From NCBI GenBank assembly GCA_020718925.1, contig DYRC01000003.1, positions 1 to 40,246 of the forward strand: a stretch of 40,246 nt of DNA, in the 5' to 3' direction. Within the stretch, counting starts at the first letter, position 1, and the number at the start of each line of letters is the position of its first letter. Of the stretch, positions 4,077-19,164 are shown in pieces. The notes beneath the pieces were generated by a model that was not told the origin of the DNA, made no database searches, and was given only the letters and a program-made list of their open reading frames with translations. Source of the DNA: Desulfonema limicola. Its GTDB lineage: Bacteria; Desulfobacterota; Desulfobacteria; Desulfobacterales; DYRC01. The position numbers and the translations under genes are program-made.

Positions 4077-5243
4077 CTAAAACTCAATAGCAATCTGTGC
4101 GGTCAGCACATCTGCTTTATCATCATTTTCAAATTCATCATGGCGATATTCCAGTGCAACAGATGTTTTATCGAATATATTTACGCTGACAACACCCATG
4201 TAGCGGCTTTCGGGAAAGAACTCCTCTGCATGATCCGATCCCTGATATGCCAAGCCGAATGTGGTCTCTTTGCCAAACATCTCGGCGGTATAGCCGATTT
4301 CAGCATTCCATGTGCTTGTTTTTTCCCCTGTAAAAACAGGTCCGATTCCCATTGCTTCCAATGCGCCCGGTAACAACTCCGACATATTCCATTCCGGTTC
4401 CTCAAGCATGGTGATATATTCTCCGATCAGCGTCAACTGTCCGAATTTGATGACAGCATAAGCACCGAGACCGGGTATGTAGTCCCGAAAAGAAAACGCA
4501 AGTCCCATACTTTCGGCATGGCTCTTTTCTTCTTCAAGAACATCTCCCCAGCCGTTTGAATCAATCAGGCTGTTGATGTATCCCAGCCCGATATCCATGC
4601 TGAAACCCTCTTTTCCCATCGTATAGCCCGCAGCAACACCGAAGTTGTCCGCATGATTATCGCCGCCGTCTTTATTCACATCTCCGTTGAACATATATGC
4701 CGCAGCATAAAACCCTTCTGATTTGAAACCGATTTCAACAGCCGATTCCCGTGTTTCACCCAATTCCAGCGTCAGCGGATCGGAAATCATATTGGATTTG
4801 AAATTGCCGAAAGGCACATACAGCTTTCCTGCCTTGAGATAAAGCGGCATGACATCCGCACCATCCAGCAGAATAAAGCCTTTATCCAGAACAACATCTT
4901 CATCGTCTTCGTATAAAAAGAGCAGACTTCCTTTGACATGCTTGGCAATATCAATATCAATGCCCACCTCCACTTTTGATAAAGCCAGATCACTGGTATT
5001 GTTGTCCTCCGCGTAGGGATCGGCAAAATTCATTTTTTCATAGCTTCCTTCTGCTTCGATAACGCCGCTGAAACTGATACGCTCTGCCCATTTGCCCGGA
5101 AGCGCTTTATCTTTCAACTGCTCCTCAATCTGCTTAACCCGTTCACTCAGATCACCACTCGGTGTTTCCTCGGCATACGCCGTGAATACAAGCGAAAACA
5201 CGCATACCACCAGACACAATACTGCCCTGTTCACTTTTTTCAT
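4077..5243 (-). CDS. Putative outer-membrane beta-barrel porin.
   Basis: Signal peptide (MKKVNRAVLCLVVCVFSLVFTAYA), alternating-hydrophobicity strands rich in G/Y/D, and a C-terminal ...IAIEF ending in Phe. An RBS aaaaggaga precedes the ATG. Confidence 0.6.
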   Translation of the reverse strand: MKKVNRAVLCLVVCVFSLVFTAYAEETPSGDLSERVKQIEEQLKDKALPGKWAERISFSGVIEAEGSYEKMNFADPYAEDNNTSDLALSKVEVGIDIDIAKHVKGSLLFLYEDDEDVVLDKGFILLDGADVMPLYLKAGKLYVPFGNFKSNMISDPLTLELGETRESAVEIGFKSEGFYAAAYMFNGDVNKDGGDNHADNFGVAAGYTMGKEGFSMDIGLGYINSLIDSNGWGDVLEEEKSHAESMGLAFSFRDYIPGLGAYAVIKFGQLTLIGEYITMLEEPEWNMSELLPGALEAMGIGPVFTGEKTSTWNAEIGYTAEMFGKETTFGLAYQGSDHAEEFFPESRYMGVVSVNIFDKTSVALEYRHDEFENDDKADVLTAQIAIEF

Positions 5244-5281
5244 TGACTTGTTCTCCTTTTTTATAAAAAATTATTTTCATC

Positions 5282-6169
5282 CTAAAATCCCTGCTGAAGC
5301 CAATCCATCGCAAGCCCTTTTTCAATCAGTTCTCTGCCATGAGGGCTTTTCATAAACGCAAGATATTTCTGTGCTGCTTCCGAAGATGCTGCCCGACTGA
5401 CCAAAGAAATATTTGCAAGAAACGGATATGTGCCATTTTTTTCAACTGCCCGTGTCGGAAAGATACCGCCGATTTTCAGAACTTTGCTCTTATCGTTGAG
5501 AAAAAAGCGCGGCGCCATAGTGATTGCCATTTCCAAGTCCGCAATTTTCTCAAACTGATTATCCGTAATTTCAACAGACATCACGGCGTGTTTCAGTCGT
5601 TCCCGATTCTTGGCAATTCCGGCTTTTTTGATGGCTTGCTCAATCAGATCATCGTAATTTGCGCCGCATTCCTGCCGATAAATGATGATATTTCTGTCTT
5701 TTCCGCCGACTTCTTTCCAATTTCCGATCTGACCTGCAAAAATCTTCAACACCTGTTCAACAGTAAGTTCGTTCACCGGATTGTTTTTGTTCACGATCAC
5801 GGAATAAGCCAGCGAATCCAATCGGGTTTCCACGATTCCGGCTGCCTGTTCCTCGGCAGTCAGCGGTCTGTGCAGCGTTCCGATGTCTGCTTTTCCCAGA
5901 CGAACCGTTTCAACGCCTTTGTGAACACCGGAGCAATCGTTGTTCATGGAAAACGCATAACTCGTCTCTTTTTTGTAAGGATTGGAAAATGTTTTCTGCT
6001 CCTCATGCCCGACCACCACGAACGGAAAAATACACCGCGATGTAACATTGACTGTTAATTCAGGCAGTTTAGGATTATCGGCAAATACTACCTGTGGAAA
6101 TCCCATCACTCCTGCCGCAGCCGCGCTCAGTTTTAAAAAATGCCGTCTGGTGCAAGACCTGCAATTCAT
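5282..6169 (-). CDS. Tat-exported periplasmic substrate-binding protein, PstS/PBP_like_2 (phosphate-binding) family.
   Basis: Twin-arginine signal (CTRRHFLKLSAAAAGVMG). PstS-family motif LTVEQVLKIFAGQIGNWKEVGG. Confidence 0.7.
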   Translation of the reverse strand: MNCRSCTRRHFLKLSAAAAGVMGFPQVVFADNPKLPELTVNVTSRCIFPFVVVGHEEQKTFSNPYKKETSYAFSMNNDCSGVHKGVETVRLGKADIGTLHRPLTAEEQAAGIVETRLDSLAYSVIVNKNNPVNELTVEQVLKIFAGQIGNWKEVGGKDRNIIIYRQECGANYDDLIEQAIKKAGIAKNRERLKHAVMSVEITDNQFEKIADLEMAITMAPRFFLNDKSKVLKIGGIFPTRAVEKNGTYPFLANISLVSRAASSEAAQKYLAFMKSPHGRELIEKGLAMDWLQQGF

Positions 6170-6247
6170 ATTTACCTCTTTTATGTTCGGGCTTCCGGCA
6201 AAACCCGGATCGGATTTCTGTCGGAAGCCTTAATAAACCAATTATAA

Positions 6248-6424
6248 TTACTCCGGTTTCTGATACGCATTGTAATGCCAGATGGAAAATCCGACCAGAG
6301 CGATGCCTGCCCATGTATGAATCTGCCGATTCGGACATCTTTTTCCCGCGCCGGTGAATACGAGCGCGGCAAGAGAAAATGTCATTCCGGCTTTTGCAAG
6401 GAATCTGATGTCGGAGCTTTTCAT
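6248..6424 (-). CDS. Small (58 aa) two-TM membrane protein, the last gene of the iron operon.
   Basis: Internal ATG at 6424 with RBS gaggaataat. It starts 1 nt after the upstream stop. Sequence: MKSSDIRFLAKAGMTFSLAALVFTGAGKRCPNRQIHTWAGIALVGFSIWHYNAYQKPE. The 94-aa track ORF upstream of this ATG overlaps the preceding gene. Confidence 0.5.
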   Translation of the reverse strand: MKSSDIRFLAKAGMTFSLAALVFTGAGKRCPNRQIHTWAGIALVGFSIWHYNAYQKPE

Positions 6425-6425
6425 A

Positions 6426-6767
6426 TTATTCCTCAGCCTCTGCTTTCTGACGCACTTCAGCCTGAACATCCTCGAATTTTTCTTTGAGTTCGTTCGCGCC
6501 GCTCTGCACCATATCATACAGCTTGATAGCACCTTTCATCACCGCTTTCTGAACCCCTTCATTGGTAACAAAAATCGCGGCGATAGCGCCCAGCGCAATG
6601 CCTTTCCAGAACTGCTGGCTGTGATAAAAAACAGCCGGATCATCATAAGCATTCTGGTAATATGCAGGATACATTCCTGATTGAGAAGAATGTCCTGCGG
6701 GTGTGCTGCATCCGCCATGCCCCGGATGACCCGAATGACCGGAACGATATTCACTGTAATCAGACAT
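6426..6767 (-). CDS. His/Gly-rich small membrane-associated protein with an amphipathic acidic C-terminal helix.
   Basis: N-terminus SGHSGHPGHGGC. Hydrophobic motif FWKGIALGAIAAIFV, shared with the C-terminus of the 7135..7704 product. Strong RBS ggaggag. It overlaps the upstream gene by 8 nt. Confidence 0.65.
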   Translation of the reverse strand: MSDYSEYRSGHSGHPGHGGCSTPAGHSSQSGMYPAYYQNAYDDPAVFYHSQQFWKGIALGAIAAIFVTNEGVQKAVMKGAIKLYDMVQSGANELKEKFEDVQAEVRQKAEAEE

Positions 6768-7116
6768 TTTCTGACTCCTCCTTTTTCGATACGCTTTTCA
6801 CTTTTTCAGAACCCGATTTTCCGACTGAATTGAGCAGATAAACCACAGAACTGGCAGCCGCAGCCATTACGACCACAGACATAAAACCGCCGCTGATTGT
6901 GGAAGCGGCAGCAGCTCCGACAGCCGTTGCCACGCCTGCTCCCGCGCCTTTTGCAAGACTGTTGCTGAGAGCCTGCTCCATTGTCATTTCATTGCTGCGG
7001 ACTTTGTGAAGATTCATGCCCAATGCTGCCGAACCTCCTACAACTGTTCCGAGAATTCCCGCGTTGAGAACATATTTCGGATTATACGATGATGACGGAG
7101 TGCTATATACTCGCAT
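6760..7116 (-). CDS. MamC/Mms13-like two-TM Gly/Ala-rich membrane protein.
   Basis: GILGTVVGGSAALGMN...(loop)...KGAGAGVATAVGAAAAS...GG resembles my recollection of magnetosome MamC (GILGGIVGGAAALAKN...KEAAGAGLATAFSAVAA...GGG). ATG at 7116 with RBS gaaggga; the track start at 7131 is TTG. Confidence 0.6.
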   Translation of the reverse strand: MRVYSTPSSSYNPKYVLNAGILGTVVGGSAALGMNLHKVRSNEMTMEQALSNSLAKGAGAGVATAVGAAAASTISGGFMSVVVMAAAASSVVYLLNSVGKSGSEKVKSVSKKEESENV

Positions 7117-7134
7117 AAATTTTCCCTTCAATTA

Positions 7135-7704
7135 CTAAGATTTGAACGCTTTGGTCAGTATCAGCGCACCCACCGCGCCCAATGCAATGCCTGTCCAGAA
7201 TCGGGTGTTTTGGCAGTCAATCCCGAAAAAGCTGCTGACAGTATTCATATCCGCCGCAGTTACGCCGCCGGTCATAAATCGCCCCATCATTTCCGATACA
7301 TGACCGGGACCATATTGCTGCTGATCTCCGCACGAGCAATGACTCTGCCCCTGCTTCGGATGACCGCCTTTCATGCCTGAATGAGACGATTGATTCGGAT
7401 AATATCCGCCTTGCTGAAAATTCTGCTGCATATCCGAGTATGGCGGCTGCTGATTCGCATATCCGCCCGAAGGTCCCATATTCATCTGCTGACTCTGATG
7501 ACTGGAGCCGGAGCATTTATGAGAGCTTTGCGGCGGCTGATTCGGGTATCCGCCCGGATGTCCCATATTCATCTGACCCTGATGACCACTTGCCGCGCCC
7601 TTCTGTTCGCCTGATGCGGCATCGCCCTGATTGTTCTGAAACGCTGCTTCCTGCGCCATAGCCTGTCCGCCTTTTTCAGAATGACTGCATGTTTCCTGTT
7701 CCAT
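7135..7704 (-). CDS. Gln/His/Gly/Pro-rich repeat protein with Cys/His clusters and a C-terminal membrane anchor.
   Basis: Repeats GHQGQMNMGHPGGYPNQPPQ and SHQSQQMNMGPSGGYANQQPP. HKCSGSSH and SHCSCGD clusters. C-terminal RFWTGIALGAVGALILTKAF. RBS aaaggag. Confidence 0.65.
   Translation of the reverse strand: MEQETCSHSEKGGQAMAQEAAFQNNQGDAASGEQKGAASGHQGQMNMGHPGGYPNQPPQSSHKCSGSSHQSQQMNMGPSGGYANQQPPYSDMQQNFQQGGYYPNQSSHSGMKGGHPKQGQSHCSCGDQQQYGPGHVSEMMGRFMTGGVTAADMNTVSSFFGIDCQNTRFWTGIALGAVGALILTKAFKS
7442..7587. repeat. Intragenic tandem DNA repeat: two ~58-60-bp units about 90 bp apart that encode the Q/H/G-rich peptide repeats.
   Basis: 7442-7501 ggcggctgctgattcgcatatccgcccgaaggtcccatattcatctgctgactctgatgac versus 7530-7587 gcggcggctgattcgggtatccgcccggatgtcccatattcatctgaccctgatgacc. 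Confidence 0.7.
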
Positions 7705-7728
7705 AATTCCGAATTTCTCCTTTTTGAT

Positions 7729-9936
7729 TTAAACCGACTTTTCGCCTTTTTTTGCCAATTCTTCCATATCTGTCTGATAAAAAAGCAATTTTGCAGAATT
7801 GCCCACCACGCCTACGGTAATCAGATTGTGAAACAACGCGCCAGCCATCGGTGAAAGCCATCCGAAAGCAGCCAGCACAATGCCTGCCAGATTCAATCCG
7901 ATAGAAATGGCATAATTCTGCTGAATCCCGGACAAAGTTCTCTGTCCCAAATCCGCACACCGGACAACCAAAGCCAGATCGCCTTGTCTGATCACAACAT
8001 CCGCATGTTCGATTGCCGCATCCGCGCCGGTGTCTCCCATTGCAACACTCAAATCCGCATGAGAAAACGCAGGCGTATCATTGATGCCGTCTCCGACCAT
8101 GCCCACAACAGTATCGGGATATTTTTCCTTCCATGAAGCAATCCATGCTGCCTTGTCTTCGGGAGATTGCTGCCAAAGCACCATGTCAATCGGCAGGTCT
8201 TTGGCAATATTGACCGCATGACGCTCATGGTCTCCGGTAATCATTGCCAGATGCTTCACATTCAAGCCTTTGAGCGCGTACAGCACTTCTTTGGCTTTTT
8301 CCTTCAGACGGTCTTCGATGCCGATCAGCCCGATCAGACGGCGGTTGAATGCCACAAACAGCACGCTTTCGCCTTTGTTGAGAATCCGCTCTTCTTCGTC
8401 ATGCCCCATTTCATGGTCAACTTCGTAATCTTCCATAAAATGATGACTGCCTACCAGAACCTCATCCCCGTTGATTTTTGCCCTGACGCCATGCCCGATA
8501 ATAAGTTCGGTTTCCTCGTGTCTTGGAATTTCGATTTCGATTTCCCGAACCTTTTCAAGCACTGCCAGCGTCATGGGATGTTTCCAATGAATCTGAGAAC
8601 TTGCTGCCAATTGCAGAATGCGGATCGGTTCGAATTGAGGATCCAGCGTAACAATTCTCGACACTCTGGGAATGCCTTTGGTCAGTGTGCCGGTTTTGTC
8701 GAAAAACAGCGTATCCATACGCCCGGCAATTTCCAGATAGCACCCGCCTTTGATCAGTATTCCCTGCCGAGCCGCATTGCCCATTGCTGCCATGATTGCC
8801 GTAGGTGTTGACAGCGCAACCCCGCAGGGACACGCGATAATCAGCATGGACAAGGCTCTGGAGATGCTTCGGGTAAGGAAAAATACTGCCATCGAAAGAC
8901 ACAGGGAAATCGGCACCACCGCATCGCTGAATTTTTCAGCAGACAACTGCACTTTGGAGATTGCGCCGTCTCCGTTTTCAATCAGGCGGATAATTGCCGC
9001 AAGCCGGGTATCTTCGCCCACAGAATCCGCTCTCACGAAAACATGCCCCATTTCCACAGTTGTTCCGGCAAATACTTTGTCGCCTTCGGTTTTGAACGCT
9101 GGCAAAGATTCGCCGGTCAGCGTGGCTTCGTTCATCAGGCAGTCTCCGCGAATGACCGTGCCGTCTGCCGGAACAGAACTGCCCATTCTCAGACTCAGAA
9201 TATCGCCTCTGACCAATTCCGATACCCGGACGGAAACTTCCACTTCATCCCTGAGTATCCACACTTCGCGGTTTTCCTGCTTCAGCATAGCACGCACGGC
9301 TTTGCGGGTTCTTTCCTGTGTTCTGTTTTCGATCCATGCGGAAAAATTGATCAGCCATACCACGACCATTGCGGTGATCGGCTCTCCCATGACAATGGAC
9401 AGATAGGACGCGCTGACAATCAGCAAGTCCATGTTCACACGCCGATCCCTGAACAGACTTTCCAGCCCGTCTTTGAGAATCGGAATGCTTAAAGCTATTG
9501 ACAATATGGCAGGAACATTGAAAATTCTGCCGATTCCCGAAAATATCCCGGAGCTTTTGTGAAAAAAGAAGCGATGTATCCACAGCCCCAGCATGTATAT
9601 CCCGGAAATTGCCAATATCGGACCCGGAACATGGGATTCTTTGCCCGAATAAGACGGACAGGATTTTTCTTTGACAGCACAAGCCCTGTTTTCCGAACCG
9701 CAGATATGCGGAAAATCTTTTTCCAGCATTGCCCGGACAGATTCCAATCCGAAATCCGCTTCATGCAGAAGAACCACCGAGCCGGTATTCAGCCGGATTT
9801 CCGCAGAAGAAATTCCGGGAATATGCACCAGTGCGTCCGATACCTGCTGTGCCAGCGATTTTTTCTGCTTCAGAGCAAGAAGTCGGATTCTGCTCCGCCG
9901 GGGCAGACGATGTTCAATATGAAACTGTTTTTTCAT
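7729..9936 (-). CDS. Heavy-metal P1B-type ATPase, paralogue 1, with a non-canonical metal-site signature.
   Basis: DKTGTLT, TGDH, GDGINDTPAF and a TM4 ACPC motif. The N-terminal HMA-like domain has no CxxC (HRLPRRSRIRL). Cys-rich linker CGSENRACAVKEKSC. TM6 reads LFHNLITVGVVGNS rather than MxxSS (Cu) or DxG (Zn). Confidence 0.9.
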   Translation of the reverse strand: MKKQFHIEHRLPRRSRIRLLALKQKKSLAQQVSDALVHIPGISSAEIRLNTGSVVLLHEADFGLESVRAMLEKDFPHICGSENRACAVKEKSCPSYSGKESHVPGPILAISGIYMLGLWIHRFFFHKSSGIFSGIGRIFNVPAILSIALSIPILKDGLESLFRDRRVNMDLLIVSASYLSIVMGEPITAMVVVWLINFSAWIENRTQERTRKAVRAMLKQENREVWILRDEVEVSVRVSELVRGDILSLRMGSSVPADGTVIRGDCLMNEATLTGESLPAFKTEGDKVFAGTTVEMGHVFVRADSVGEDTRLAAIIRLIENGDGAISKVQLSAEKFSDAVVPISLCLSMAVFFLTRSISRALSMLIIACPCGVALSTPTAIMAAMGNAARQGILIKGGCYLEIAGRMDTLFFDKTGTLTKGIPRVSRIVTLDPQFEPIRILQLAASSQIHWKHPMTLAVLEKVREIEIEIPRHEETELIIGHGVRAKINGDEVLVGSHHFMEDYEVDHEMGHDEEERILNKGESVLFVAFNRRLIGLIGIEDRLKEKAKEVLYALKGLNVKHLAMITGDHERHAVNIAKDLPIDMVLWQQSPEDKAAWIASWKEKYPDTVVGMVGDGINDTPAFSHADLSVAMGDTGADAAIEHADVVIRQGDLALVVRCADLGQRTLSGIQQNYAISIGLNLAGIVLAAFGWLSPMAGALFHNLITVGVVGNSAKLLFYQTDMEELAKKGEKSV

Positions 9937-12137
9937 GCTGTTTTTCCATTATCTCCTTTCCAAGTCAGCAGACGACTCGAATTTGCCAAAATTCCCAAAG
10001 TATGGACAATATGCAGCATACCGCCCATCAGAGGACTGAGCAGCCCCATTGCACCGAAAACCATGCCGAAAATATTGGTGGAGGTGGCAAGCCAGTAATT
10101 CTGGTCAATGACTCTGAGCGTCTGACGGCTCAACTGTCTGAGTGTGAGCAGCCGTTTCAGATCACTGTCTGTCAGGGCGATGTCTGCGGCTTCGATGGCA
10201 ACATCCGCACCGCCCGCGCCCATTGCAATTCCGACACTTGCTCTGGACAATGCCAATGCGTCATTCACGCCGTCTCCCACCATGACCACCCGGCATCCGC
10301 TGCTTTCCAGCATTTCCAGATGATACGCTTTGTCTTCCGGCAAAAGTTCTGCTTTGTAATCATCAAATCCCAGACTTTCAGCCAGATGCTTTGCCACAGG
10401 CTCGGTATCTCCGGTAATCAGATGCAGATTTTTCACCCCGTCTTTTCTGAGATATTCAAGCACACTCAGGGCATGAGGGCGAAGCGTGTTACCGACAGCG
10501 ATCAGTCCGTGAAGTGTCTGATTTTCCGCCACATAAATCAGAGTCTGCCCCATTGCCACACGCTTTTCCGCTTCTTCGGCAAAAAAGGAAATGTCAATTC
10601 CGCCCTGATTCATAAACCTGCTGTTTCCCACCATGATTTTATTGCCGTTCACCTGCGCGGTTACGCCCAATCCCAGCACAAATTCGCAGGTTACATGAGA
10701 CCTTGGCAGGATGCCCCGAATCTCCGCTTCTTTCATCACAGCTTTTGCCAAAGGATGTTCGTTATGGATTTCGGCAATCGCCGCCAGTTCCAGAACATCG
10801 TTTTCGGTTTTATCCGCTAAGAATGAAATAATTTCAGATATCTGCGGAACATCAATGGTCAGGGTTCCGGTTTTGTCAAAGCAGAAACTATCGGCTTTTC
10901 CGACCATTTCCAGATACAGCCCGCCTTTGATGAGAATATGGTTTTTGGCAGCATTGGCAATTGCCGCGCTGATTGCCGTAGAAGCCGCAAGCACGGTCGC
11001 GCACGGACATGCCATGACCAGCATGACCGTAAATGCCCGGAACGGATTAAGCGTAATCAGCAGCGTGCCGACAGTTGCAGATATGCCGATTTTGAACAGA
11101 CGTTCAGCCAGAATATCCGCCTGCTGCTCGACCGGAGCGCGGTTTTCCAAAGAATCTTCAACCAATTGCAGAATGCGGCATAAGTATGTGTCATCTCCGA
11201 CTTTTTCAGCGTGGATGAAAATAACGCCTTTCTGAACAATGGTTCCGGCAAACACAATATCGTTTTCCCCGCGCGTCTCCGCTTCCGCGCGACCCGTGAT
11301 ATGCGATTCGTCAATAATCGCCTGACCTCTGACAATCGTGCCGTCAACCGGAATTTTTTCGCCGGTATGAATCACCACCGTATCTCCGGGGTTGAGTTCA
11401 TCCGCACAGATGCGGACTTCTATGCCGTTGACAAAAATGTAGGTATCTTTTTCCGCAATCTGAAGAATCTCGCGGATGGCTTTGCGCGATTGTTCTGCCA
11501 CATAATCCTCCAGCAGCATTCCGACCCGAAGAATCCAGATCACTTCAAGCGCGGTCATGGCTTCTCCCATTGCAATGCCGAGCAGAATGGAGCAAGCAAG
11601 AAAGGGAAACAGGCTTTTGTGCCTTCCGTGGCGCAGGTCGGCGATAGCATGTCGGAACAAGGGAATGGACGCAATCAGACTGACCAGAGATGTCAGGCTG
11701 AAAATGCCCTGTGCCGCAGGAGATTTGGAAATCACCCGCCGGATAATGACATAGCCCACAAACAGGGTCAGTGCGATAATGCCGAGCAGCGAGTCGAACA
11801 AAGACTGCTTTTTCCGCTTTGTTTTTTCAGACGGATCACACTTTACGCAACTCATGGCGCACACCGAAGGCATCCGGGAAGATCGCGCCTGTTTCGGATG
11901 AATCTCCAATGCCTGTATCAGCAGTTCCCTGAGTTGTTCGGGCTTGATCTCCTTGTGTTTGTAGCACACAATCACGCTTCCCGAATGCGCCCGGACTTCA
12001 ATTTTGGTGATGCCGTTTTTCTGAGCCAGCCATTTTTCCAATGAGACTGCCCGCTCATACGCATGGAGAATCTCATTGACATTGAATCGCAGCCGCCCCG
12101 AAATAGCATGTCGGATTGTAATTCGGCTTTTTTTCAT
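9933..12137 (-). CDS. Heavy-metal P1B-type ATPase, paralogue 2, with a non-canonical metal-site signature.
   Basis: DKTGTLT, TGDT, GDGVNDALAL and a TM4 ACPC motif. N-terminal HMA2-like ISGRLRFNV without a loop-1 CxxC. Linker CAMSCVKC. TM6 reads MLHIVHTLGILANS. ATGA overlap with the downstream paralogue. Confidence 0.9.
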   Translation of the reverse strand: MKKSRITIRHAISGRLRFNVNEILHAYERAVSLEKWLAQKNGITKIEVRAHSGSVIVCYKHKEIKPEQLRELLIQALEIHPKQARSSRMPSVCAMSCVKCDPSEKTKRKKQSLFDSLLGIIALTLFVGYVIIRRVISKSPAAQGIFSLTSLVSLIASIPLFRHAIADLRHGRHKSLFPFLACSILLGIAMGEAMTALEVIWILRVGMLLEDYVAEQSRKAIREILQIAEKDTYIFVNGIEVRICADELNPGDTVVIHTGEKIPVDGTIVRGQAIIDESHITGRAEAETRGENDIVFAGTIVQKGVIFIHAEKVGDDTYLCRILQLVEDSLENRAPVEQQADILAERLFKIGISATVGTLLITLNPFRAFTVMLVMACPCATVLAASTAISAAIANAAKNHILIKGGLYLEMVGKADSFCFDKTGTLTIDVPQISEIISFLADKTENDVLELAAIAEIHNEHPLAKAVMKEAEIRGILPRSHVTCEFVLGLGVTAQVNGNKIMVGNSRFMNQGGIDISFFAEEAEKRVAMGQTLIYVAENQTLHGLIAVGNTLRPHALSVLEYLRKDGVKNLHLITGDTEPVAKHLAESLGFDDYKAELLPEDKAYHLEMLESSGCRVVMVGDGVNDALALSRASVGIAMGAGGADVAIEAADIALTDSDLKRLLTLRQLSRQTLRVIDQNYWLATSTNIFGMVFGAMGLLSPLMGGMLHIVHTLGILANSSRLLTWKGDNGKTA

Positions 12138-12292
12138 TCTGCTTTTCCATTCTTAGTCAATATGCAGTTACATGATGAACACCCGCATCCGCCGCCGCAT
12201 CTTTCGGGATTTTTTGCTGTTTTCCGAACCGTATTGGCAAGATAGAGAACAGCCATACTGATAATGAGAAAAATGACTATGTTTTCAAACAT
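12134..12292 (-). CDS. FeoB-associated Cys-rich small membrane protein (52 aa).
   Basis: MFENIVIFLIISMAVLYLANTVRKTAKNPERCGGGCGCSSCNCILTKNGKAE: one TM helix plus a CGGGCGCSSCNC tail. RBS aaggag. It starts 17 nt after the feoB stop, and its stop overlaps the ATPase start (ATGA). Confidence 0.75.
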   Translation of the reverse strand: MFENIVIFLIISMAVLYLANTVRKTAKNPERCGGGCGCSSCNCILTKNGKAE

Positions 12293-12309
12293 TTTTTCAT
12301 CTCCTTTGC

Positions 12310-14448
12310 TTATAAAATCAGCGATCCGATCTGAAATACCAGCACCGCCAGCGTAAATGCCAGCAAAGTATTGAATATCATTGAAAACGCTCCCCATTTC
12401 CACGATCCGGCTTCTCTGGCAATACACACCACCGTTACAAAGCAGGGCGCGTAAAACATGATGAAAATAATCAGACTGAGCGCGGTCAGAGGAGACCATC
12501 CGGGAGATTTGGTAAGCATTTCTCCCAAAGAATCACTGGCTTCGGGATCAACATTTCCCATCGAATATGCCGTACCCAGTGTGGAAACCACGACTTCTTT
12601 TGCCGCAAAGCCGCCCACCAGCGCGATATTGGTGCGCCAGTCAAACCCTGCAAGCCATGAAATGCTTTCCAATGCGGTTCCTATTCTTCCGGCTATCGAA
12701 TATTTCAGCCCTGCTTCAGCCTGAGCAGCATCAATCGCAGTAAGCTTATCTTTGTCAGATTGCGCCACAGTATTGCGCTGCTGATCGAATTTCTCCGCTT
12801 CCGAATCCGGCAGTCCGGGGAATGTCATCATGCCCCATAAAACCACGGAAACCGCGAGAATCACCGTGCCTGCTTTTCTGATATACTGCCACGTTCTTTC
12901 ATAAGTATGAGTGGCAAGACCTTTGAGCGTTGGAAGCCGGTACGGCGGAAGTTCCATAACAAAGGGCGATGCTTCTCCTTTGATGACAGTCATCCGCAGA
13001 AGTTTTGCCACCAGCAGCGCGCCGCCCCATGAAATCAGCGTCAGGGCAAACATAAGCAGTCCTTTGTGATTCGGAAAAAATGCGGCAATCAGAAGGGCAA
13101 ATACCGGCAATTTCGCGCCGCAGTTCATAAACGGAGCGGTCAGAAGTGTTGCCAACTGCTCACGCGGTGATTTCAGAGTCCGGGCTGCCATAACGCCGGG
13201 AACCGCGCACCCTCCGGCAATGCCGCCGGATACGATAAATGCCATCACCGAACTGCCGTGCAGCCCGAACATGCCGAATACTTTATCAAGCATGAAAGCA
13301 ACCCGTGCCAGATAGCCGGAATCTTCAAGTGCGGCAATGCCCAGAAACATAAGCATAATCAGCGGCACAAAACTCAGAACTCCGCCCAGTCCGTCAATAA
13401 TGCCGGATATGATCAGAGATTTCAAAAGTCCGTCAGGCAGAGTTTCGGATGCCAGTCCGTTCAGCCATGCGAAAAAAGCATCCAGCCATTTCACAGGTAT
13501 TTCGCTGAATGTGAAAATGAACTGATACAGCCCGAAAAGTATCAGCAGCATTATCACGGGTCCTGCGATTCGGTGCGTCAGAACTTTGTCAATTTTATCC
13601 GATGCGTAAAGCCGGTTTTTATCGTATTTTTCCTTCAGCACGCCCTGTTTGAGAACCGAGCGGATATAGCCATAACGATAATCGGCAATCAGAGCTTCGG
13701 GATAAGTATCTGATGTGTACTGCAAATGCTCTGACACTCTTTCGACAATGCGTTCAAGTTTTGCAGACAAAACCGCATTTCTGCCCCGCCCCTTTGCCAA
13801 AAGCTGCTCGTCTTTTTCCATATATTTAAGGGCAATCCAGCGCGAAGGATAAATGTCTGTCAGAAAATTACCGGCACAGATTTCTTTTTCCATTTCGAGA
13901 ATCGCGCTGTCTATATCCTGTCCGTAAGAAATCACAAGAGGCTGCTTTTTCTCTTTTTTATCGGCAAAAGCGGCAGCAGTATCCATCAGTTCCTGTTTGC
14001 CGTATCCGGTTCTGGCGATAATCGGAACCACCGGAACGCCTAATGATTTTGAAAGCCTTTCCGCATTGATTTCTATGCCCCGATCTTTTGCCAAATCCAT
14101 CATGTTCAGGGCAATACAGACCGGGACGCCGAGTTCGAGCATCTGAATGGTCAGATACAGATTGCGTTCCAAATTGGAAGCATCCGCAATATTGATAGTT
14201 ACGTCCGGCGATTCATTGACCAGAAAATCTCTGGCAACCACTTCTTCCATCGAATACGCGGTCAGAGAATAGGTTCCGGGAAGATCGGTAATCCGCATCT
14301 TGTAACCGTTATACACACACCTGCCTTCTTTTTTTTCTACGGTAACTCCCGGATAATTGCCAACATGCTGACGCGCACCGGTCAGTTCGTTGAACAGCGT
14401 GGTTTTGCCGCAGTTGGGATTTCCGCCCAGTGCAATGGTCGTTTCCAT
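12310..14448 (-). CDS. feoB: Ferrous iron transporter FeoB (N-terminal G domain plus polytopic membrane domain).
   Basis: G1 motif GNPNCGKTTLFN, then DLPGTYSL and NMMD, followed by the gate/core membrane domain. 712 aa. Confidence 0.95.
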   Translation of the reverse strand: METTIALGGNPNCGKTTLFNELTGARQHVGNYPGVTVEKKEGRCVYNGYKMRITDLPGTYSLTAYSMEEVVARDFLVNESPDVTINIADASNLERNLYLTIQMLELGVPVCIALNMMDLAKDRGIEINAERLSKSLGVPVVPIIARTGYGKQELMDTAAAFADKKEKKQPLVISYGQDIDSAILEMEKEICAGNFLTDIYPSRWIALKYMEKDEQLLAKGRGRNAVLSAKLERIVERVSEHLQYTSDTYPEALIADYRYGYIRSVLKQGVLKEKYDKNRLYASDKIDKVLTHRIAGPVIMLLILFGLYQFIFTFSEIPVKWLDAFFAWLNGLASETLPDGLLKSLIISGIIDGLGGVLSFVPLIMLMFLGIAALEDSGYLARVAFMLDKVFGMFGLHGSSVMAFIVSGGIAGGCAVPGVMAARTLKSPREQLATLLTAPFMNCGAKLPVFALLIAAFFPNHKGLLMFALTLISWGGALLVAKLLRMTVIKGEASPFVMELPPYRLPTLKGLATHTYERTWQYIRKAGTVILAVSVVLWGMMTFPGLPDSEAEKFDQQRNTVAQSDKDKLTAIDAAQAEAGLKYSIAGRIGTALESISWLAGFDWRTNIALVGGFAAKEVVVSTLGTAYSMGNVDPEASDSLGEMLTKSPGWSPLTALSLIIFIMFYAPCFVTVVCIAREAGSWKWGAFSMIFNTLLAFTLAVLVFQIGSLIL

Positions 14449-14450
14449 AG

Positions 14451-14684
14451 TTACTGCACCTCCACCTCAATATAATCTGCCTCTTTGTTTCTTAAAGTCA
14501 GTATGAATCCTTTGATTCTCAGCGCAACCGGATCATATAGCGGCGCGCGTCCCTGAACTTTGATTTCCGTGCCGGGTACAAGCCCCATATCCCGGATCCG
14601 CCTGCCCAATTCTCCGGCAGCTTTCACAGAAGTAACGATTCCTGCCTGATTGTCCTGCATCTGTCGCATGATTAAACGAGCCAT
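14451..14684 (-). CDS. feoA: FeoA family protein.
   Basis: SH3-like FeoA pattern (RRIRDMGLVPGTEIKV...APLYDPVALRIKGFILTLRNKEADYIEV). It lies directly upstream of feoB with a 2-nt gap. Confidence 0.85.
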   Translation of the reverse strand: MARLIMRQMQDNQAGIVTSVKAAGELGRRIRDMGLVPGTEIKVQGRAPLYDPVALRIKGFILTLRNKEADYIEVEVQ

Positions 14685-15688
14685 TATGATAAGCCTCCTG
14701 ATTCAGACAGTTTTTTCTTGGCAGAATATGGGCAGTTTTTGCAATTCCCGCTGCAATGATGTTTTTTGGCTTCAGGCGCAACAATCACCTTGCTTCCGTT
14801 GGGCGCGATGTCAAATCCTTTTTTTCCTTTGAAAAAGATACGATCTGCGGGCAGCAGGTTGAAATTCAGTCCGCACCGGAACGTATTACACCCGAAAGAG
14901 CAGAGATGATGCAGATGATTTGTGTCAATAAACACTCTTCCCCTGCCGTCATATTTATTATGAATAAAATTAAGCAGTTCATAAGCGGAACTCCCGTCAA
15001 AATCCCCTCTGGGCTTCAGATGAAGATCACCGTTGCTGTTTCTTGATTCGATCTGAAAATCTGCACTCATGTTTTTTCCTCCGATCACTGAAAATAACGT
15101 TTGAATTTTGTCCCTATCAGCAGATAAGGCATGAACAATGTCGGGATCGAACTGCGTCCCGGAATTTATGATAATTTCATCAACAGCCGCATCAAATGTT
15201 TTTGGCAGCCGATATGAACGACAGCCTGTCATGGCAGACAAACTATCTGCTACGGCAATGATTCTTGCGCCGAGCGGAATCGCCCTGCCTTTCAATCCGT
15301 GCGGATATCCCTGTCCGTCATAACGTTCATGGTGATAAAGCACCATCTCGCAGATACCGGCTGCCTCAATTTCCCGAACCGGACCAAGAATCGCTGCTCC
15401 GATCTGCGGATGTCTGCGTACAGCCTGCCATTCGGCATCATTCAATTTGCCTTGTTTGTTCAGAATACAATCCGGCACGCCGATTTTTCCGATGTCGTGA
15501 AGATGTCCGGCAATATGAATAATATCCGCATGATTTGTTTCCAAGCCGAGCGATAATGCTAAAATGCGGGATATTTCGGCAACTTCCAGCGAATGCTTTT
15601 CCGTGTAAGCATCTTTGGCATCAACGGCATTGCCCAGAGATTCGGCAAACTGATGAATCGCTGTCATGGATTTCGGTACGGACTTCAT
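14684..15688 (-). CDS. HD-GYP domain protein (putative c-di-GMP phosphodiesterase) fused to a STAS-like C-terminal domain and a Cys-rich tail.
   Basis: HSLEVAE...HLHDIGKIGVPD...HHERYDGQGYPHGL. The C-terminal ~130 aa follow a STAS-like pattern (LHLKPRGDFDGSSAYELL...VFIDTNHLHHLCSFG). Tail HHCSGNCKNCP. Its stop shares 1 nt with the feoA ATG (TAATG). Confidence 0.8.
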   Translation of the reverse strand: MKSVPKSMTAIHQFAESLGNAVDAKDAYTEKHSLEVAEISRILALSLGLETNHADIIHIAGHLHDIGKIGVPDCILNKQGKLNDAEWQAVRRHPQIGAAILGPVREIEAAGICEMVLYHHERYDGQGYPHGLKGRAIPLGARIIAVADSLSAMTGCRSYRLPKTFDAAVDEIIINSGTQFDPDIVHALSADRDKIQTLFSVIGGKNMSADFQIESRNSNGDLHLKPRGDFDGSSAYELLNFIHNKYDGRGRVFIDTNHLHHLCSFGCNTFRCGLNFNLLPADRIFFKGKKGFDIAPNGSKVIVAPEAKKHHCSGNCKNCPYSAKKKLSESGGLS

Positions 15689-16941
15689 AGCTCCCTTACC
15701 GCGCCGGAAGTTGCTGCGATATTCGGTCTCTGAATCCCCTGAAATATCGCATTCAAGCCTGAGCCTGAAAGCATCTGAACCGGCTTATGGTGTTTTTTGC
15801 CCAGTTGTTTGACCAGTGTACATGCCGCATGACTGTTGCAGTTGACCGGACACAGCACGATGTCTGCCCGCCTGAGACTGCATTCAAGCTTGCCCACGCC
15901 TCCTTTGACATGCCCGTCATGGTATTCAAAGATTCCGCCGCTGCGCTCAACTACCTGACGATACAGCGATTCCATCCTGCTGATGCCGCCGACAATCAAT
16001 ACCCGCTTTCTGCACAAATCAAAGGACGGACAGCTTTGATTACAGCCATTTATTCCGCAGGACTGCATCATCATATCGTGAATTTCTTTCTGAAAATTCG
16101 ATTCCGATTCGCTCTTCCTCAGCAAATCAGTGGTTAATCGCTGATTTTCCGCTTCAAGCTTGACAATCTGCTTTGCAAACAATACGGCTTTTTCGGAAAT
16201 CCTTGTCTGATCCGCCTTTAATTTCCGGTTTTCCTTTTTCAACTCTTCAAATTCTGCATGAAGTTTCCGATCTTTTGCTGCCTCAAGCTCGGTCTCAAGC
16301 AGGATTTTCTGTTTTTCCGAAATATCCAGACGAAGTTTCAGTTCATTCGCTGCATTTTGCAGAGATTCGACTTCTTTTTGCAGAATTTTGCGATGCCTGT
16401 TTTCTTCATCTGCTTTCTCCGCAGCTTTGCGGCTTTGTTCCTGCATCAGATCGGTGCGTCTGAGCATATCCGCCCGCTCTTCGCTGTTTCTGTGCATGGA
16501 CATGTGAATATCCCCGAACACTTCCCGGCGGAATTCTTTTGACAGATTGCGGCGGGAGGCAAGATACCAGAATATTCCGATATATTCTCCGGCTTTGAAA
16601 CAGATCTGCCACTGCGCTGCCAATTCTGCTTCTGTCATGGCTGCAAATAATTCCGATTCGCGGGAAAATTTACGGACAAGCAGGCTGTCAATTTTCCGGG
16701 ATAAACGATTTTCACTTTTTGAACTGGCAACCAGAATTTCGTGCATCTCGAAAAGACTTGTTTTTTTCAAAGAAAGCCCTGATTTTTTAAGTAGTTGCTT
16801 TTGTTCGGATACGCTAAGACATATCCCTGCTATCGGGCATGAGAAAAAATCATCTGTCTCCCAAAACTTCAAACGGGCGGAGTGATCGCTCTGTGCCGTA
16901 ATTTCAGTGAAATCCGGCAGCATTTTGCCTGAATTTTGCAT
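15685..16941 (-). CDS. DUF2325-domain protein with a long central coiled coil.
   Basis: N-terminal ETDDFFSCPIAGICLS motif. About 130 aa of heptad-rich K/E/L sequence. C-terminal DUF2325-like VLIVGG...ADIVLCPVNCNSHAAC. RBS aaaggagg. 4-nt overlap with the next gene. Confidence 0.7.
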   Translation of the reverse strand: MQNSGKMLPDFTEITAQSDHSARLKFWETDDFFSCPIAGICLSVSEQKQLLKKSGLSLKKTSLFEMHEILVASSKSENRLSRKIDSLLVRKFSRESELFAAMTEAELAAQWQICFKAGEYIGIFWYLASRRNLSKEFRREVFGDIHMSMHRNSEERADMLRRTDLMQEQSRKAAEKADEENRHRKILQKEVESLQNAANELKLRLDISEKQKILLETELEAAKDRKLHAEFEELKKENRKLKADQTRISEKAVLFAKQIVKLEAENQRLTTDLLRKSESESNFQKEIHDMMMQSCGINGCNQSCPSFDLCRKRVLIVGGISRMESLYRQVVERSGGIFEYHDGHVKGGVGKLECSLRRADIVLCPVNCNSHAACTLVKQLGKKHHKPVQMLSGSGLNAIFQGIQRPNIAATSGAVREL

Positions 16942-16955
16942 GAATACCTCCTTTC

Positions 16956-17007
16956 AAATAAAAAAGGCGCAGCCCAAGACGGATTTATCCGTATCGAGTT
17001 ACGCCTT
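16956..17007 (-). terminator. Rho-independent terminator-like hairpin plus U-run. It lies 3' of the 95-aa ORF and only ~15 nt 5' of the RBS of the iron operon.
   Basis: The outer stem pairs aaggcg (16964-16969) with cgcctt (17002-17007). There is an inner perfect hairpin acggat-tt-atccgt. On the minus strand the structure is followed by ttttttatttg. Confidence 0.55.
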
Positions 17008-17066
17008 CACTTTTTCCGCGCTGATTCAGCCGGAAACCGTAAGACATCCCAAACTATTCAATAAAT

Positions 17067-17354
17067 TTATTCAGATTCAATCAACGCCTGAGTAAGTTGT
17101 CTGCGTAATACCTCAAGCCGCTTGGATTTGAATGCTTTTCTGCTTTCATCCAATACTTCGATGGCGTCTCTGATCGCTGTTTTCAGTCTGAGTTCACGAG
17201 AACATAAAACCGGGTGATTTCCAAAACCGTGTTCACCGGATTGCCTCTCCAAAATGGAAGCTATCACACAACGATGTTTTTCAATATCCTGATACAACGA
17301 ATGAATGCTCTCATGAACAGTTCTGAGCATCAGATCGTTTTTGTCCGACTCCAT
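17067..17354 (-). CDS. Hypothetical 95-aa helical protein.
   Basis: Clean ORF between dtxR and the iron operon, on the same strand. I recognise no domain. Confidence 0.45.
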   Translation of the reverse strand: MESDKNDLMLRTVHESIHSLYQDIEKHRCVIASILERQSGEHGFGNHPVLCSRELRLKTAIRDAIEVLDESRKAFKSKRLEVLRRQLTQALIESE

Positions 17355-17420
17355 ATTAATCTCTCCTATTAATATTTGATATATCTAACTTTTAAAACAA
17401 AAAAAATATAATTTATGTGT

Positions 17421-17888
17421 TTAATCGGTTTTCTCCGATTTTCGGCTTCTATATTCTTCAAAATGATTGAGACGATCTCCGCCCATCGGACATGTCTGTA
17501 TAAATTCAATGAAATCCGTAAGGCTGTCCAGCGTTGACGGACTGAGCGTATGTTCTATCCTGCACGCGTCTTCATCTGCGGTTCTGAAATCAATTTGCAG
17601 GATTTCAGTCAGAAACTTTCGGATAAGCTCATGGCGTCTCCGCATTTCTCTGCCGATGTCAGCGCCATGCTCCGTCAGTTCCACATATTCGTATTTTTCA
17701 TAGTGAACCAACTTCCGCTCATTCAATGTTTTGAGCATACTGGTAACAGAGGGCATCCTGACCTCCATCCTTTTGGCAATATCCCTGACCCGCACAATCT
17801 TCTGATCTCTGTCAAGGTCATAAATCGCTTCAAGGTAATCTTCCATCACAGATGTAAGAGGCTTCTCTGCCGCATGATCGCTTATCAT
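17421..17888 (-). CDS. DtxR/MntR-family metal-dependent transcriptional repressor.
   Basis: N-terminal HTH pattern MEDYLEAIYDL...VRVRDIAKRMEVRMPSVTSMLKTL. Dimerisation/metal domain with HELIRKFL...EDACRIEH. Confidence 0.85.
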   Translation of the reverse strand: MISDHAAEKPLTSVMEDYLEAIYDLDRDQKIVRVRDIAKRMEVRMPSVTSMLKTLNERKLVHYEKYEYVELTEHGADIGREMRRRHELIRKFLTEILQIDFRTADEDACRIEHTLSPSTLDSLTDFIEFIQTCPMGGDRLNHFEEYRSRKSEKTD

Positions 17889-18099
17889 TCCATTATCCTT
17901 TTGTTAAAGCAATCTAATATGATTTCGTCTTCCTAATAACCTGCTTTGTTATCTGTTGTCAAGACTTTTTTGCTTATGAAGATCGGAATTTATCCCTGAA
18001 ATCTGTTCAGAGGCTTTTTTAATCATACGGATTATGATATACTGTTTTTCATAAAGAGTCGGATAATCTTGTCAGAAAACGCGAGGAGACACATAACCG

Positions 18100-19164
18100 A
18101 TGTTTATAAAAAAAATGATTCTGGTCATAGCCGCAATGCTATCCGCAACGTATTGTTTTGCCGCAGATTATGAACGGGAAACTCCGGTGGTGAGAGCGGT
18201 GAGAAAAGTCAGTCCATCGGTGGTCAACATCAATACCGAATACACCGCGCAGGCAAGTCCTTTCGGAAAATTAGACCCGTTTTTCGATTTGTTTTTCAAG
18301 GATTTCTTGGAGCCTCTGCCCAAAAGTCAATATAAAGGAACCAGTCTGGGATCGGGCGTGATTATTGACGGAAAGCGCGGGCTGATTCTGACAAACGCGC
18401 ACGTCATTTCCAAAGGCGGCATTATCAAAGTGATTTTAAACGATACCCGCGAATTTCAAGCCAGAGTGGTCGGCGCTGACCCGGATACGGATTTGGCAAT
18501 ACTGAGAATTTCTTCTCCTTCGCCTCTTCCCGCGCTGGAGATGGGCAATTCAGACGATCTGATGATTGGCGAAACCGTATTTGCCATCGGTAATCCCTTC
18601 GGATTTTCCAACACCGTAACCACCGGCGTTATCAGCGCGATAGGACGCAGCATCCGCTCGGATCAGCATGTGTTTCACGATTTTATTCAGACCGATGCCT
18701 CCATCAATCCGGGCAACAGCGGTGGACCTCTGCTCAATATCAAAGGCGAGCTTATCGGCATAAACACGGCGATTTACGCCAAAGCTCAGGGCATCGGATT
18801 TGCCATTCCTATCAGTAAAGCCAAAAAAATCGTAGCAGAACTGGTTCGGCATGGCGAAATGACAGACCGATATGCCGCTCCGGGAACTATCAGCGAAGAT
18901 TTGGGCTGGAAACTGCTGGGCGTCCGGGTGAATGATTCTGATGCTGAAGGCGTGATGATTAAAGAAATCCGCACGGATTCCTATCTTGCACAGGTCGGCG
19001 CCAGACCCGGAGACGTGATTCGGCAGGTTGATGAATTGGGTGTCGCAACCGTGAAAGATTTTGAAACTGCCCTGTATCGCTACCGCCAGAAATCTTCGCT
19101 GGTGCTTTTGTTGCAGCGCGGCTCACGCGGCTATTACATCACTGTTAAAATCAGAGCATCATGA
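18100..19164 (+). CDS. htrA: Periplasmic serine protease of the HtrA/DegP (S1C) family with one PDZ domain.
   Basis: Signal peptide. Catalytic triad context TNAHV, DLAIL, GNSGGPL. C-terminal PDZ-like GVMIKEI...AGARPGDVI. Confidence 0.9.
   Translation: MFIKKMILVIAAMLSATYCFAADYERETPVVRAVRKVSPSVVNINTEYTAQASPFGKLDPFFDLFFKDFLEPLPKSQYKGTSLGSGVIIDGKRGLILTNAHVISKGGIIKVILNDTREFQARVVGADPDTDLAILRISSPSPLPALEMGNSDDLMIGETVFAIGNPFGFSNTVTTGVISAIGRSIRSDQHVFHDFIQTDASINPGNSGGPLLNIKGELIGINTAIYAKAQGIGFAIPISKAKKIVAELVRHGEMTDRYAAPGTISEDLGWKLLGVRVNDSDAEGVMIKEIRTDSYLAQVGARPGDVIRQVDELGVATVKDFETALYRYRQKSSLVLLLQRGSRGYYITVKIRAS

Follow-up and report, generated by a model that had tools for sequence, protein, structure and literature searches.

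The window analysed here is a 40,246-nucleotide (nt) stretch of DNA from an uncultured Desulfobacterales bacterium (contig DYRC01000003.1). Running along its minus strand from position 16941 to position 6248 is a string of eleven genes that is probably a ferrosome-type (fez-family) iron sequestration operon, in a variant form without FezB. The string couples the ferrous iron importer FeoAB to two arginine-rich P1B ATPases (ATPase-1 and ATPase-2) and to four small membrane proteins (g8 to g11). An earlier note on this DNA took the string either for an elaborate fez-type (ferrosome-like) cluster or for a distinct new compartment system; it pointed to fez clusters, reportedly described by the Komeili laboratory (Nature, 2022) and in C. 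difficile (Nature, 2023), as built on the P1B-type ATPase FezB and small membrane proteins. The idea of a distinct new system is not sustained. A fez-type cluster, rather than ordinary metal efflux, is indicated by the placement of ATPase-2 in the FezH clade of pumps, by the presence of the accessory genes beside true FezB in other genomes, and by the homology of g10 to a canonical fez protein. FezB-dependent ferrosomes have been shown experimentally in D. magneticus, S. putrefaciens, and R. palustris (bioRxiv 10.1101/2020.01.10.902569) and in C. difficile (PMC13307979). A pump pair of the window's kind is already known, undiscussed, from a supplementary table of the ferrosome preprint.

Translation of the window gives eleven intact open reading frames (ORFs) in this string, all started by ATG and with zero internal stops. 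Consecutive genes are tightly packed: g1 and g2 overlap by 4 nt, g2 and feoA by 1 nt, the gene for a Cys-rich peptide and that for ATPase-2 by 4 nt, and the genes for ATPase-2 and ATPase-1 by 4 nt (ATGA), with gaps of 2 nt between feoA and feoB and of 17 nt between feoB and the peptide gene. Past ATPase-1, a 24-nt gap, an 18-nt gap, an 8-nt overlap, and a 1-nt gap follow in order. Stop and start codons overlap at five junctions of the eleven-gene string. The earlier note had described the same eleven coupled minus-strand genes, correctly at every junction, and its domain calls (DUF2325, HD-GYP, FeoA, FeoB, Cys-rich peptide, two P1B ATPases, a MamC-like protein, and a DtxR upstream) agree with family scans.

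The two pumps, ATPase-2 (g6, 9933..12137) and ATPase-1 (g7, 7729..9936), both carry an N-terminal HMA_2 domain (Pfam). They are only 33% identical to one another and represent different families rather than a recent duplication; what the earlier note called a duplicated ATPase is instead a FezH pump next to a pump of a CPC/HNxIT clade. FezB is defined by D[Y/F]SCA in transmembrane helix 4 (TM4), HNxxT in TM6, and an N-terminal arginine-rich motif (bioRxiv 10.1101/2020.01.10.902569). ATPase-1 has ACPCGV in TM4, HNLIT in TM6, and RRSRIR near its N-terminus, and its TGES, DKTGT, and GDGIND motifs are all intact. The last-helix motif of fez pumps is present as HNLIT in ATPase-1 and in its FezH form, HIVHT, in ATPase-2, and the arginine-rich N-terminus (RxR or RxRxR) occurs in both, as RRSRIR and GRLRF, respectively. 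Neither pump is FezB (P1B-6), and ATPase-1 shares 33% identity with a true FezB. The motif set of ATPase-1 is that of the unassigned Desulfomonile tiedjei Desti_4193, the sole match in Supplementary Table 1 of the preprint, where this protein is also the sole entry with its colour code and lies two genes from Desti_4191 (bioRxiv 10.1101/2020.01.10.902569). A bootstrapped neighbour-joining tree of 80 sequences (100 replicates; a simple method, so that its deep branching is provisional) places both ATPases in an arginine-rich superclade of FezB, FezH, and CPC/HN pumps, ATPase-2 in the FezH clade, and ATPase-1 in a Desulfobacterota CPC/HNxIT clade, each of these groupings being recovered in 100/100 bootstraps. 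By synteny, ATPase-1 holds the place that FezB occupies in sister loci.

Comparable loci were gathered by scanning a profile of g9 relatives over species-level genomes and fetching the contigs that encode those relatives (numbered with L below); at least 11 species-level genomes contain the MamC-like gene. The earlier note had proposed small-gene synteny as a check, and the block of ATPase and four small genes is indeed found in more than 20 independent loci, a recurrence which argues that the arrangement is not due to chance. A block comprising a FezH-type pump, a second pump, and g8 to g11 occurs in Desulfobacterales, Desulfomonilaceae, a metagenome-assembled genome (MAG) labelled SEEP-SRB2, and Anaeroferrophillacea, and further in a complete Desulfobacter genome and a magnetotactic Magnetomoraceae genome. 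The second pump is a true FezB (VDYSC[AV], HN..T) in L009, L020, L022, L024, L025, and L028, and an ACPCG/HNLIT pump in the window and in L007, L016, L017, L018, L021, and L023. Accessory genes accompany true FezB in genomes that include L009, L020, L022, L024, L025, L027, and L028; in all of these except L024, which has g9 to g11 beside FezB alone, the g8 to g11 module stands beside both FezH and true FezB. The Desulfobacter locus L027 encodes three pumps (FezB, FezH, and a TCPC/HNLIT pump), as in the preprint's D. vibrioformis entries. When metagenomes were scanned for the TM4 pattern of FezH, 68 FezH loci were retrieved; where a second pump is visible, the MamC-like gene is present in 9/10 of those with a FezB partner and in 4/4 of those with a CPC/HNLIT partner. 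The small genes are conserved next to both types of pump and are therefore part of fez clusters. As judged by these gene orders, the window locus is a recurrent FezB-less arrangement. The identical ATPase-1 is also encoded on contigs from MAGs and metagenomes, with its neighbours in the same order, and close homologues are labelled Desulfobacterales or Desulfamplus.

All four small genes are conserved accessories of fez clusters. The 189-residue g8 (7135..7704) is rich in Gln, His, Gly, and Cys over a long N-terminal region and carries a GxxxG helix, FWTGIALGAVGAL, in its C-terminal part; it has no Pfam match, and its orthologues in at least 10 loci have the helix ...FW[KT]G..(G/A)... in common. 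In the 113-residue g10 (6426..6767), the N-terminus is rich in His and Gly, the GxxxG helix is QFWKGIALGAIAAI, and the C-terminal helix is charged. These are the two proteins in which the earlier note had correctly seen His/Cys/Gln-rich tracts, and g8, which has the same FW[KT]G...G helix, is a paralogue of g10. Canonical six-gene fez operons for comparison were taken from one plasmid each of Azospirillum and Arcobacter. In addition to weak DUF5132 and YtxH matches, g10 aligns with the product of the "YtxH" GxxxG gene that immediately precedes FezB in the Azospirillum operon (hhalign probability 97.6%, E 3.7e-12), its hmmsearch scores against the equivalent genes are 56.6 bits (Arcobacter) and 44.9 bits (Azospirillum), and its helix is similar to the motifs given for Group 2-1 in the preprint's Supplementary Table 4. 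These profile matches identify g10 as a FezE/FezG-like ("YtxH-like") protein homologous to the canonical fez GxxxG protein, and so the window contains a small GxxxG protein with a counterpart in characterised operons. A kinship of g10 with PacL was considered and rejected, the hhalign probability against a Rhodococcus DUF1490 protein beside a CtpC-like pump being only 4.8%; none of g8 to g11 matches DUF1490 (PacL) even at E <= 10. The 58-residue g11 (6248..6424) is a two-helix peptide, HTWAGIALVGFSVWHYN, that is weakly DUF4405-like (Pfam E 0.027, below threshold) and has orthologues of 47-76% identity in 12 loci; DUF4405-type proteins are among the fez components described in the preprint (bioRxiv 10.1101/2020.01.10.902569).

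The fourth small protein, g9 (6760..7116), is a 118-residue, two-helix membrane protein of the MamC superfamily that lies in the FezF position. It matches NCBIfam MamC at E 6.7e-11 with 42.4 bits, below the equivalog cutoff of 100, and is assigned to PF26373 in precomputed Pfam data. Its profile aligns with a Magnetococcales MamC at an hhalign probability of 97.7% (E 1.5e-12), with about 38% identity over 91 aligned columns that span the two helices and the connecting loop, in agreement with the earlier note's remark that one small protein resembles MamC. Among 1.84 billion proteins, the g9 family profile retrieves only 216 representative clusters, including this same Magnetococcales protein, which NCBI names MamC (E 1.5e-7). 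On this profile evidence, g9 is a true MamC homologue and not an equivalog. Two metagenome proteins, P0336 (252 residues) and P0434 (285 residues), are natural fusions of an N-terminal MamC-like domain with a C-terminal g10-like GxxxG/YtxH-like domain, which speaks for a functional connection between the two small proteins. In the loci examined, the g9 orthologue is always found alongside FezH-, FezB-, or CPC-type pumps.

The MamC family also appears to extend to proteins in the FezF position of other fez clusters. By gene order, D. vibrioformis Q366DRAFT_02522 (132 residues, preprint Group 4-6) corresponds to the MamC-like gene of L027, and Group 4 also takes in Sputcn32_3195 and RPA2335 (bioRxiv 10.1101/2020.01.10.902569). 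Direct comparison of the g9 profile with single FezF-position proteins gives hhalign probabilities of 11% (Azospirillum) and 29% (Arcobacter), which are too weak alone. The Arcobacter gene joins the MamC-like family through P0420, a library-wide match of the g9 profile (E 8e-8) to which it scores 118 bits; the MamC kinship of FezF of the Azospirillum, Rhodopseudomonas, and Shewanella types is unproven by sequence, the Azospirillum similarity being weak. The literature search, in which the published state was taken from the 2020 preprint and its tables, returned no paper tying MamC to ferrosome genes, and the apparent homology of FezF-position proteins to MamC thus appears to be unreported there. 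A full fez cluster also lies at 6175-13602 of L028, a contig of Candidatus Magnetomoraceae gMMP-15, a multicellular magnetotactic bacterium, and consists of FezH, g8-like, MamC-like, g10-like, and g11-like genes, FezB, and a FeoA-domain protein. A MamC homologue is therefore found within a fez-type cluster of a magnetotactic bacterium as well.

The motifs of ATPase-2 (ACPCATV, HIVHT, and GRLRF) fit a 42-member group in Supplementary Table 1 of the preprint, of which Dde_0489, Q366_02520, and Desti_4191 are examples (bioRxiv 10.1101/2020.01.10.902569). The preprint describes a second arginine-rich pump, FezH, in larger fez clusters (bioRxiv 10.1101/2020.01.10.902569), and from its text we infer that this name applies to the 42-member table group. 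The FezH motif set used here (TM4 [AST]CPC[AS]T, TM6 H-x-x-H-[TS], and the arginine-rich N-terminus) is complete in ATPase-2, which is accordingly classed, from motifs and tree, as a FezH-family pump. A tblastn search with ATPase-2 against plasmids found no FezH, and its top matches were CtpC-like pumps at <=35% identity.

The canonical catalytic set of TGE(S/A), DKTGT, and GDGxND is complete in ATPase-1 and incomplete in ATPase-2, whose actuator motif, at about residue 283, is TGR in place of TGE(S/A), with DKTGT and GDGVND intact. The glutamate of the TGE motif drives dephosphorylation in P-type ATPases. The FezH actuator is [TN]GR in 12/12 fetched loci and in 58/58 metagenome copies (56 TGR and 2 NGR; this sample was picked by TM4 pattern and covers FezH with ACPCATV(L)A only), so that arginine replaces the actuator glutamate in 70/70 FezH sequences overall. 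Partner pumps keep TGE, both as FezB neighbours (13/13) and as CPC/HNLIT neighbours (4/4). Because the proline three residues past the TGR position is still aligned, the change is a substitution and not a shift of register. From the family-wide replacement of TGE by TGR we infer that the cycle of FezH is altered or very slow, and that FezH may be the partner of a canonical pump. The change from glutamate to arginine is apparently unreported in the literature searched, with the 2020 ferrosome preprint and its tables as the published reference.

Upstream of the pumps, the operon begins with g1 (15685..16941), a 418-residue protein that has a coiled coil in its middle region and DUF2325 as its C-terminal domain (Pfam E 4.6e-24), and g2 (14684..15688), an HD-GYP-type phosphohydrolase with a Cys-rich C-terminal extension (Pfam HD_5 E 5.8e-38; motif HHERYDGQGYP) that is predicted to be a cyclic di-GMP phosphodiesterase. 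An orthologue of g2 with 71% identity is found in L016. DUF2325 genes flank fez clusters in L009 (265-1584), L016, L020 (4793-6352), L013 (5854-6129), and L030 (3108-3440), and those of L013, a Firmicutes-type locus, and L030, an Arcobacter plasmid locus, stand beside FezB in unrelated lineages; the term DUF2325 is not in the preprint's tables. The import genes follow as FeoA (g3, 14451..14684; Pfam E 2.2e-18, 66.5 bits against a cutoff of 23), the ferrous iron transporter FeoB (g4, 12310..14448; TIGR00437 559.9 bits against a cutoff of 315.65), and a 52-residue FeoB-associated Cys-rich membrane peptide (g5, 12134..12292; Pfam FeoB_associated 34.4 bits against a cutoff of 27). FeoA, FeoB, Fur, and DtxR are common neighbours of fez genes (bioRxiv 10.1101/2020.01.10.902569), and the link of Feo and DtxR to the locus claimed in the earlier note is borne out by their adjacency here. 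A direct feoA-feoB-peptide-FezH junction is present only in the close relatives L097 and L114, with about 90% identity; in more distant loci the Feo genes are near the cluster in other positions. Among the elaborations that the earlier note considered unusual, the direct Feo fusion is rare, whereas the second ATPase, the MamC-like gene, and DUF2325 recur in fez loci. The comparisons of gene content show that the second ATPase, the MamC-like gene, the Feo neighbours, DtxR, and DUF2325 are all recurring fez features and not unique ones. The really unusual traits of the locus are the direct coupling of feoAB to an ATPase and the lack of FezB in the cluster.

In its overall composition, the locus resembles D. 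magneticus fezABC and the six-gene fez operons of S. putrefaciens and R. palustris, in which an arginine-rich P1B ATPase is combined with small membrane proteins that carry GxxxG. Further points in common with characterised fez clusters are a DUF4405-type protein, a protein with two helices, the Feo, DtxR, and Fur neighbours, and an anaerobic lineage. Unlike those clusters, the locus has CPC instead of D[Y/F]SCA in TM4 and thus no FezB, joins feoAB and the Cys-rich peptide straight to the pumps, and is headed by an HD-GYP protein and a long DUF2325 protein; separate HMA_2 proteins like FezC or FezD are absent from the window. Large Desulfobacterota clusters with FezB and FezH include those of Desulfobacter vibrioformis (Q366_02514, 02520, 02522, and 02524) and D. 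alaskensis (Dde_0489-0498), both from the preprint, with L027 as an equivalent. This last locus shares with the window FezH, homologues of g8 to g11, and a CPC/HNLIT pump of the ATPase-1 clade; the large clusters keep a true FezB, whereas the window cluster has only FezH and the CPC/HNLIT pump. The same pair of pumps is encoded by Desti_4191 (ACPCATV and HIVHT) and Desti_4193 (ACPCGVS, HNLIT, and WRTRIKV) of a cultured organism, Desulfomonile tiedjei DCB-1, which are 56-60% identical to those of the window. The preprint lists this pair without discussing it, and no FezB is listed for D. tiedjei in Supplementary Table 1 (bioRxiv 10.1101/2020.01.10.902569). The Desulfomonilaceae MAG loci L007 and L021 have the gene order of the window and homologues of g8 to g11, but lack the direct Feo fusion.

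The basis for each functional step proposed here is homology to, and synteny with, the experimentally studied FezB clusters. The upstream DtxR-family repressor and a nearby Fur-family gene would control the locus, and FeoA, FeoB, and the Cys-rich peptide would carry Fe(II) into the cytoplasm. The two arginine-rich P1B ATPases, if seated in the membrane of an internal vesicle, would then move Fe(II) from the cytoplasm to the lumen. ATPase-1, with all its catalytic motifs present, is the likely working pump in FezB's stead; ATPase-2 (FezH), which keeps the phosphorylation site and has arginine for glutamate, more likely serves as a partner with a slow, regulatory, or structural role. Together, the four small membrane proteins may form or coat the vesicle, the His/Cys/Gln-rich tails of the GxxxG proteins would be either cytoplasmic or lumenal, and the small proteins may bind metal or nucleate mineral. 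The HD-GYP and DUF2325 proteins probably tie the system to signalling. Two linked claims go beyond the locus: that MamC forms one family with the two-helix protein found at the FezF position of fez clusters, and that FezH is, family-wide, a catalytically altered pump that would work only as partner or regulator of a canonical pump, either FezB or the CPC/HNxIT pump. Taken together they are tentative, and we consider them somewhat less likely to be right than wrong.

Several observations weigh against a ferrosome. The TM4 sequences are IIACPCGV in ATPase-1 and VMACPCAT in ATPase-2, neither of which is D[Y/F]SCA, and ATPase-1 groups with FezB in 0/100 bootstraps, so the FezB-clade (P1B-6) membership raised in the earlier note does not hold; of the placement it had proposed to check, ATPase-2 falls in FezH and both pumps fall in the arginine-rich superclade, and the clade of ATPase-1 joins CtpC-like pumps at low support and not FezB. 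The absence of FezB applies to the cluster and to the 40-kb window, and a FezB elsewhere in the genome is possible. No FezB-less cluster of the window's type is known to make granules. As to co-transcription, promoter and terminator scans of 5200-18200 gave counts at the level of shuffled sequence and are uninformative about an operon. Regulators of the DtxR family and Feo-type transporters can serve manganese as well. Finally, CtpC is a Zn exporter of the plasma membrane that needs the small membrane partner PacL1 (PMC13460109), and ATPase-1 bears the motifs by which CtpC is recognised (CPC in TM4 and H-N-x-(S/T) in TM6; PMC13460109), as ACPC and HNLIT. It also shares the arginine-rich N-terminus of M. 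tuberculosis CtpC, small membrane partners are present in both systems, the CPC/HNxIT clade joins the CtpC-like pumps in 46/100 neighbour-joining bootstraps, and the Joint Genome Institute name for close relatives is "P-type ATPase C". The locus could accordingly be a CtpC/PacL-like efflux platform ("effluxosome") in the cytoplasmic membrane, where the two pumps would send surplus Fe, Mn, or Zn into the periplasm or else load secreted proteins with metal, stabilised by the small single-helix proteins as scaffolds or chaperones. FezA-like proteins beside true FezB do match DUF1490 weakly. Yet no window protein matches DUF1490, the probability for g10 against the Rhodococcus DUF1490 protein contrasts with that for the canonical fez GxxxG protein (4.8% vs 97.6%), and true FezB elsewhere has the same accessory genes. 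The CtpC link in the tree is itself at 46%, and the context in the window is iron import instead of metal intoxication, tight coupling to an Fe(II) importer fitting storage better than detoxification. An efflux platform of this kind is unlikely, though it retains some plausibility.

The MamC-like protein invites another explanation, namely that it and Feo reflect magnetite or greigite biomineralisation, the locus being a remnant or accessory of a magnetosome system. That g9 is a true MamC homologue, that a homologous cluster occurs in the magnetotactic Magnetomoraceae genome (L028), and that magnetosome islands often carry feoAB all speak for it. However, g9 has 42 bits where an equivalog needs 100, its relatives keep company with the pumps described above, and the L028 cluster is itself made of fez parts. 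Unlike magnetosome MamC (Mms13), g9 is embedded in fez-type clusters and has no magnetosome gene cluster around it: a Pfam scan of the larger ORFs of the window found no other magnetosome-associated family, and the neighbours are housekeeping genes. A magnetosome island was rejected on these last two grounds, and a magnetosome origin of the locus is hardly credible. It is also very improbable that the string is fortuitous, with Feo import and unrelated heavy-metal efflux pumps lying side by side and having no joint function. The uninformative promoter and terminator scans, and the restriction of the direct feoB-to-ATPase junction to close relatives, would fit such an accident, but the five overlapping stop and start codons, the repeated adjacency of Feo, and the retention of the pump and four-small-gene block across lineages whose pumps are just 57-81% identical would not.

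Upstream of the operon lies a gene for a 155-residue DtxR-family metal-dependent repressor (17421..17888, minus strand; Pfam Fe_dep_repress E 1e-18, Fe_dep_repr_C E 7.3e-22). Its orthologues adjoin the cluster in L018, L009, and L103, and it is likely to be the regulator of the locus; no operator site for control of the DtxR or Fur type was identified. Between it and the operon is a conserved 95-residue protein (17067..17354, minus strand) with no Pfam match, which has orthologues of 52-58% identity at the same position in L016 and L018 and a weaker match in L081. The 133-nt intergenic region upstream of g1 folds at -43.4 kcal/mol (z = -3.9) and includes an inverted repeat that forms a strong hairpin followed by a U-run (16964..17007, minus strand), 16 nt 5' of the g1 start codon. 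The hairpin, together with some 40 nt on its 5' side, is kept after the gene for the 95-residue protein in L016 (about 1860-1945) and L018 (about 4270-4365), the element of the window being 16964-17045 (minus strand); the apical stem varies among loci with its pairing maintained. This RNA-like element has no Rfam match, as an Rfam scan of the whole window gave none in the locus and only one tRNA and one HEARO RNA elsewhere. The hairpin may be the terminator of the unit formed by DtxR and the 95-residue protein, or a leader attenuator.

On the 3' side of g11, a hairpin without a U-run is followed on the same strand by a gene for a PBP_like_2 (phosphate-binding-protein-like) protein with a twin-arginine (TAT) signal and by a porin-like gene (4077-6169, minus strand). 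Both are kept in contigs of the same species and are not present in the more distant loci examined; the pair is notable only since the ferrosome mineral is an iron phosphate. The rest of the window is chromosomal housekeeping DNA, with tig-clpP-clpX-lon, Fur, catalase, and xseA. The catalase gene (203-1659, minus strand) is in two ORFs that correspond to positions 1-128 and 155-383 of Pfam Catalase. Gene calls on two independent MAG contigs, L002 and L003, divide it in the same way, so the split is probably a real disruption or recoding site and not a sequencing error. Toward the right end, an IscB-type gene (RRXRR and HNH, 428 residues; 36707-37993) lies directly downstream of the HEARO RNA (Rfam RF02033, 143.6 bits; 38032-38241), and together they look like an OMEGA-type RNA-guided nuclease unit (36707-38241, minus strand). 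A MazF/PemK-type toxin gene (39660-40025, plus strand) is close to this unit, which suggests a small region of mobile or accessory DNA at the right end of the window.

In genetic terms, FezB is what defines a ferrosome, and a conserved cluster that has FezH and all the accessory genes with a swapped pump bears on which parts the compartment needs. It also raises the question of whether other metals are stored likewise, and genome searches keyed on FezB would miss clusters of this type. For FezH, an uncharacterised family of pumps, the glutamate-to-arginine change amounts to a prediction that can be tested, and the pairing of FezH with a CPC/HNxIT pump would, if true, mean that an iron compartment can be reached without FezB. 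Through the MamC link there is a concrete way into the evolutionary relation between the two known lipid-bounded iron organelles of bacteria; if the kinship of MamC and FezF is true, ferrosomes and magnetosomes would share an ancestral membrane component.

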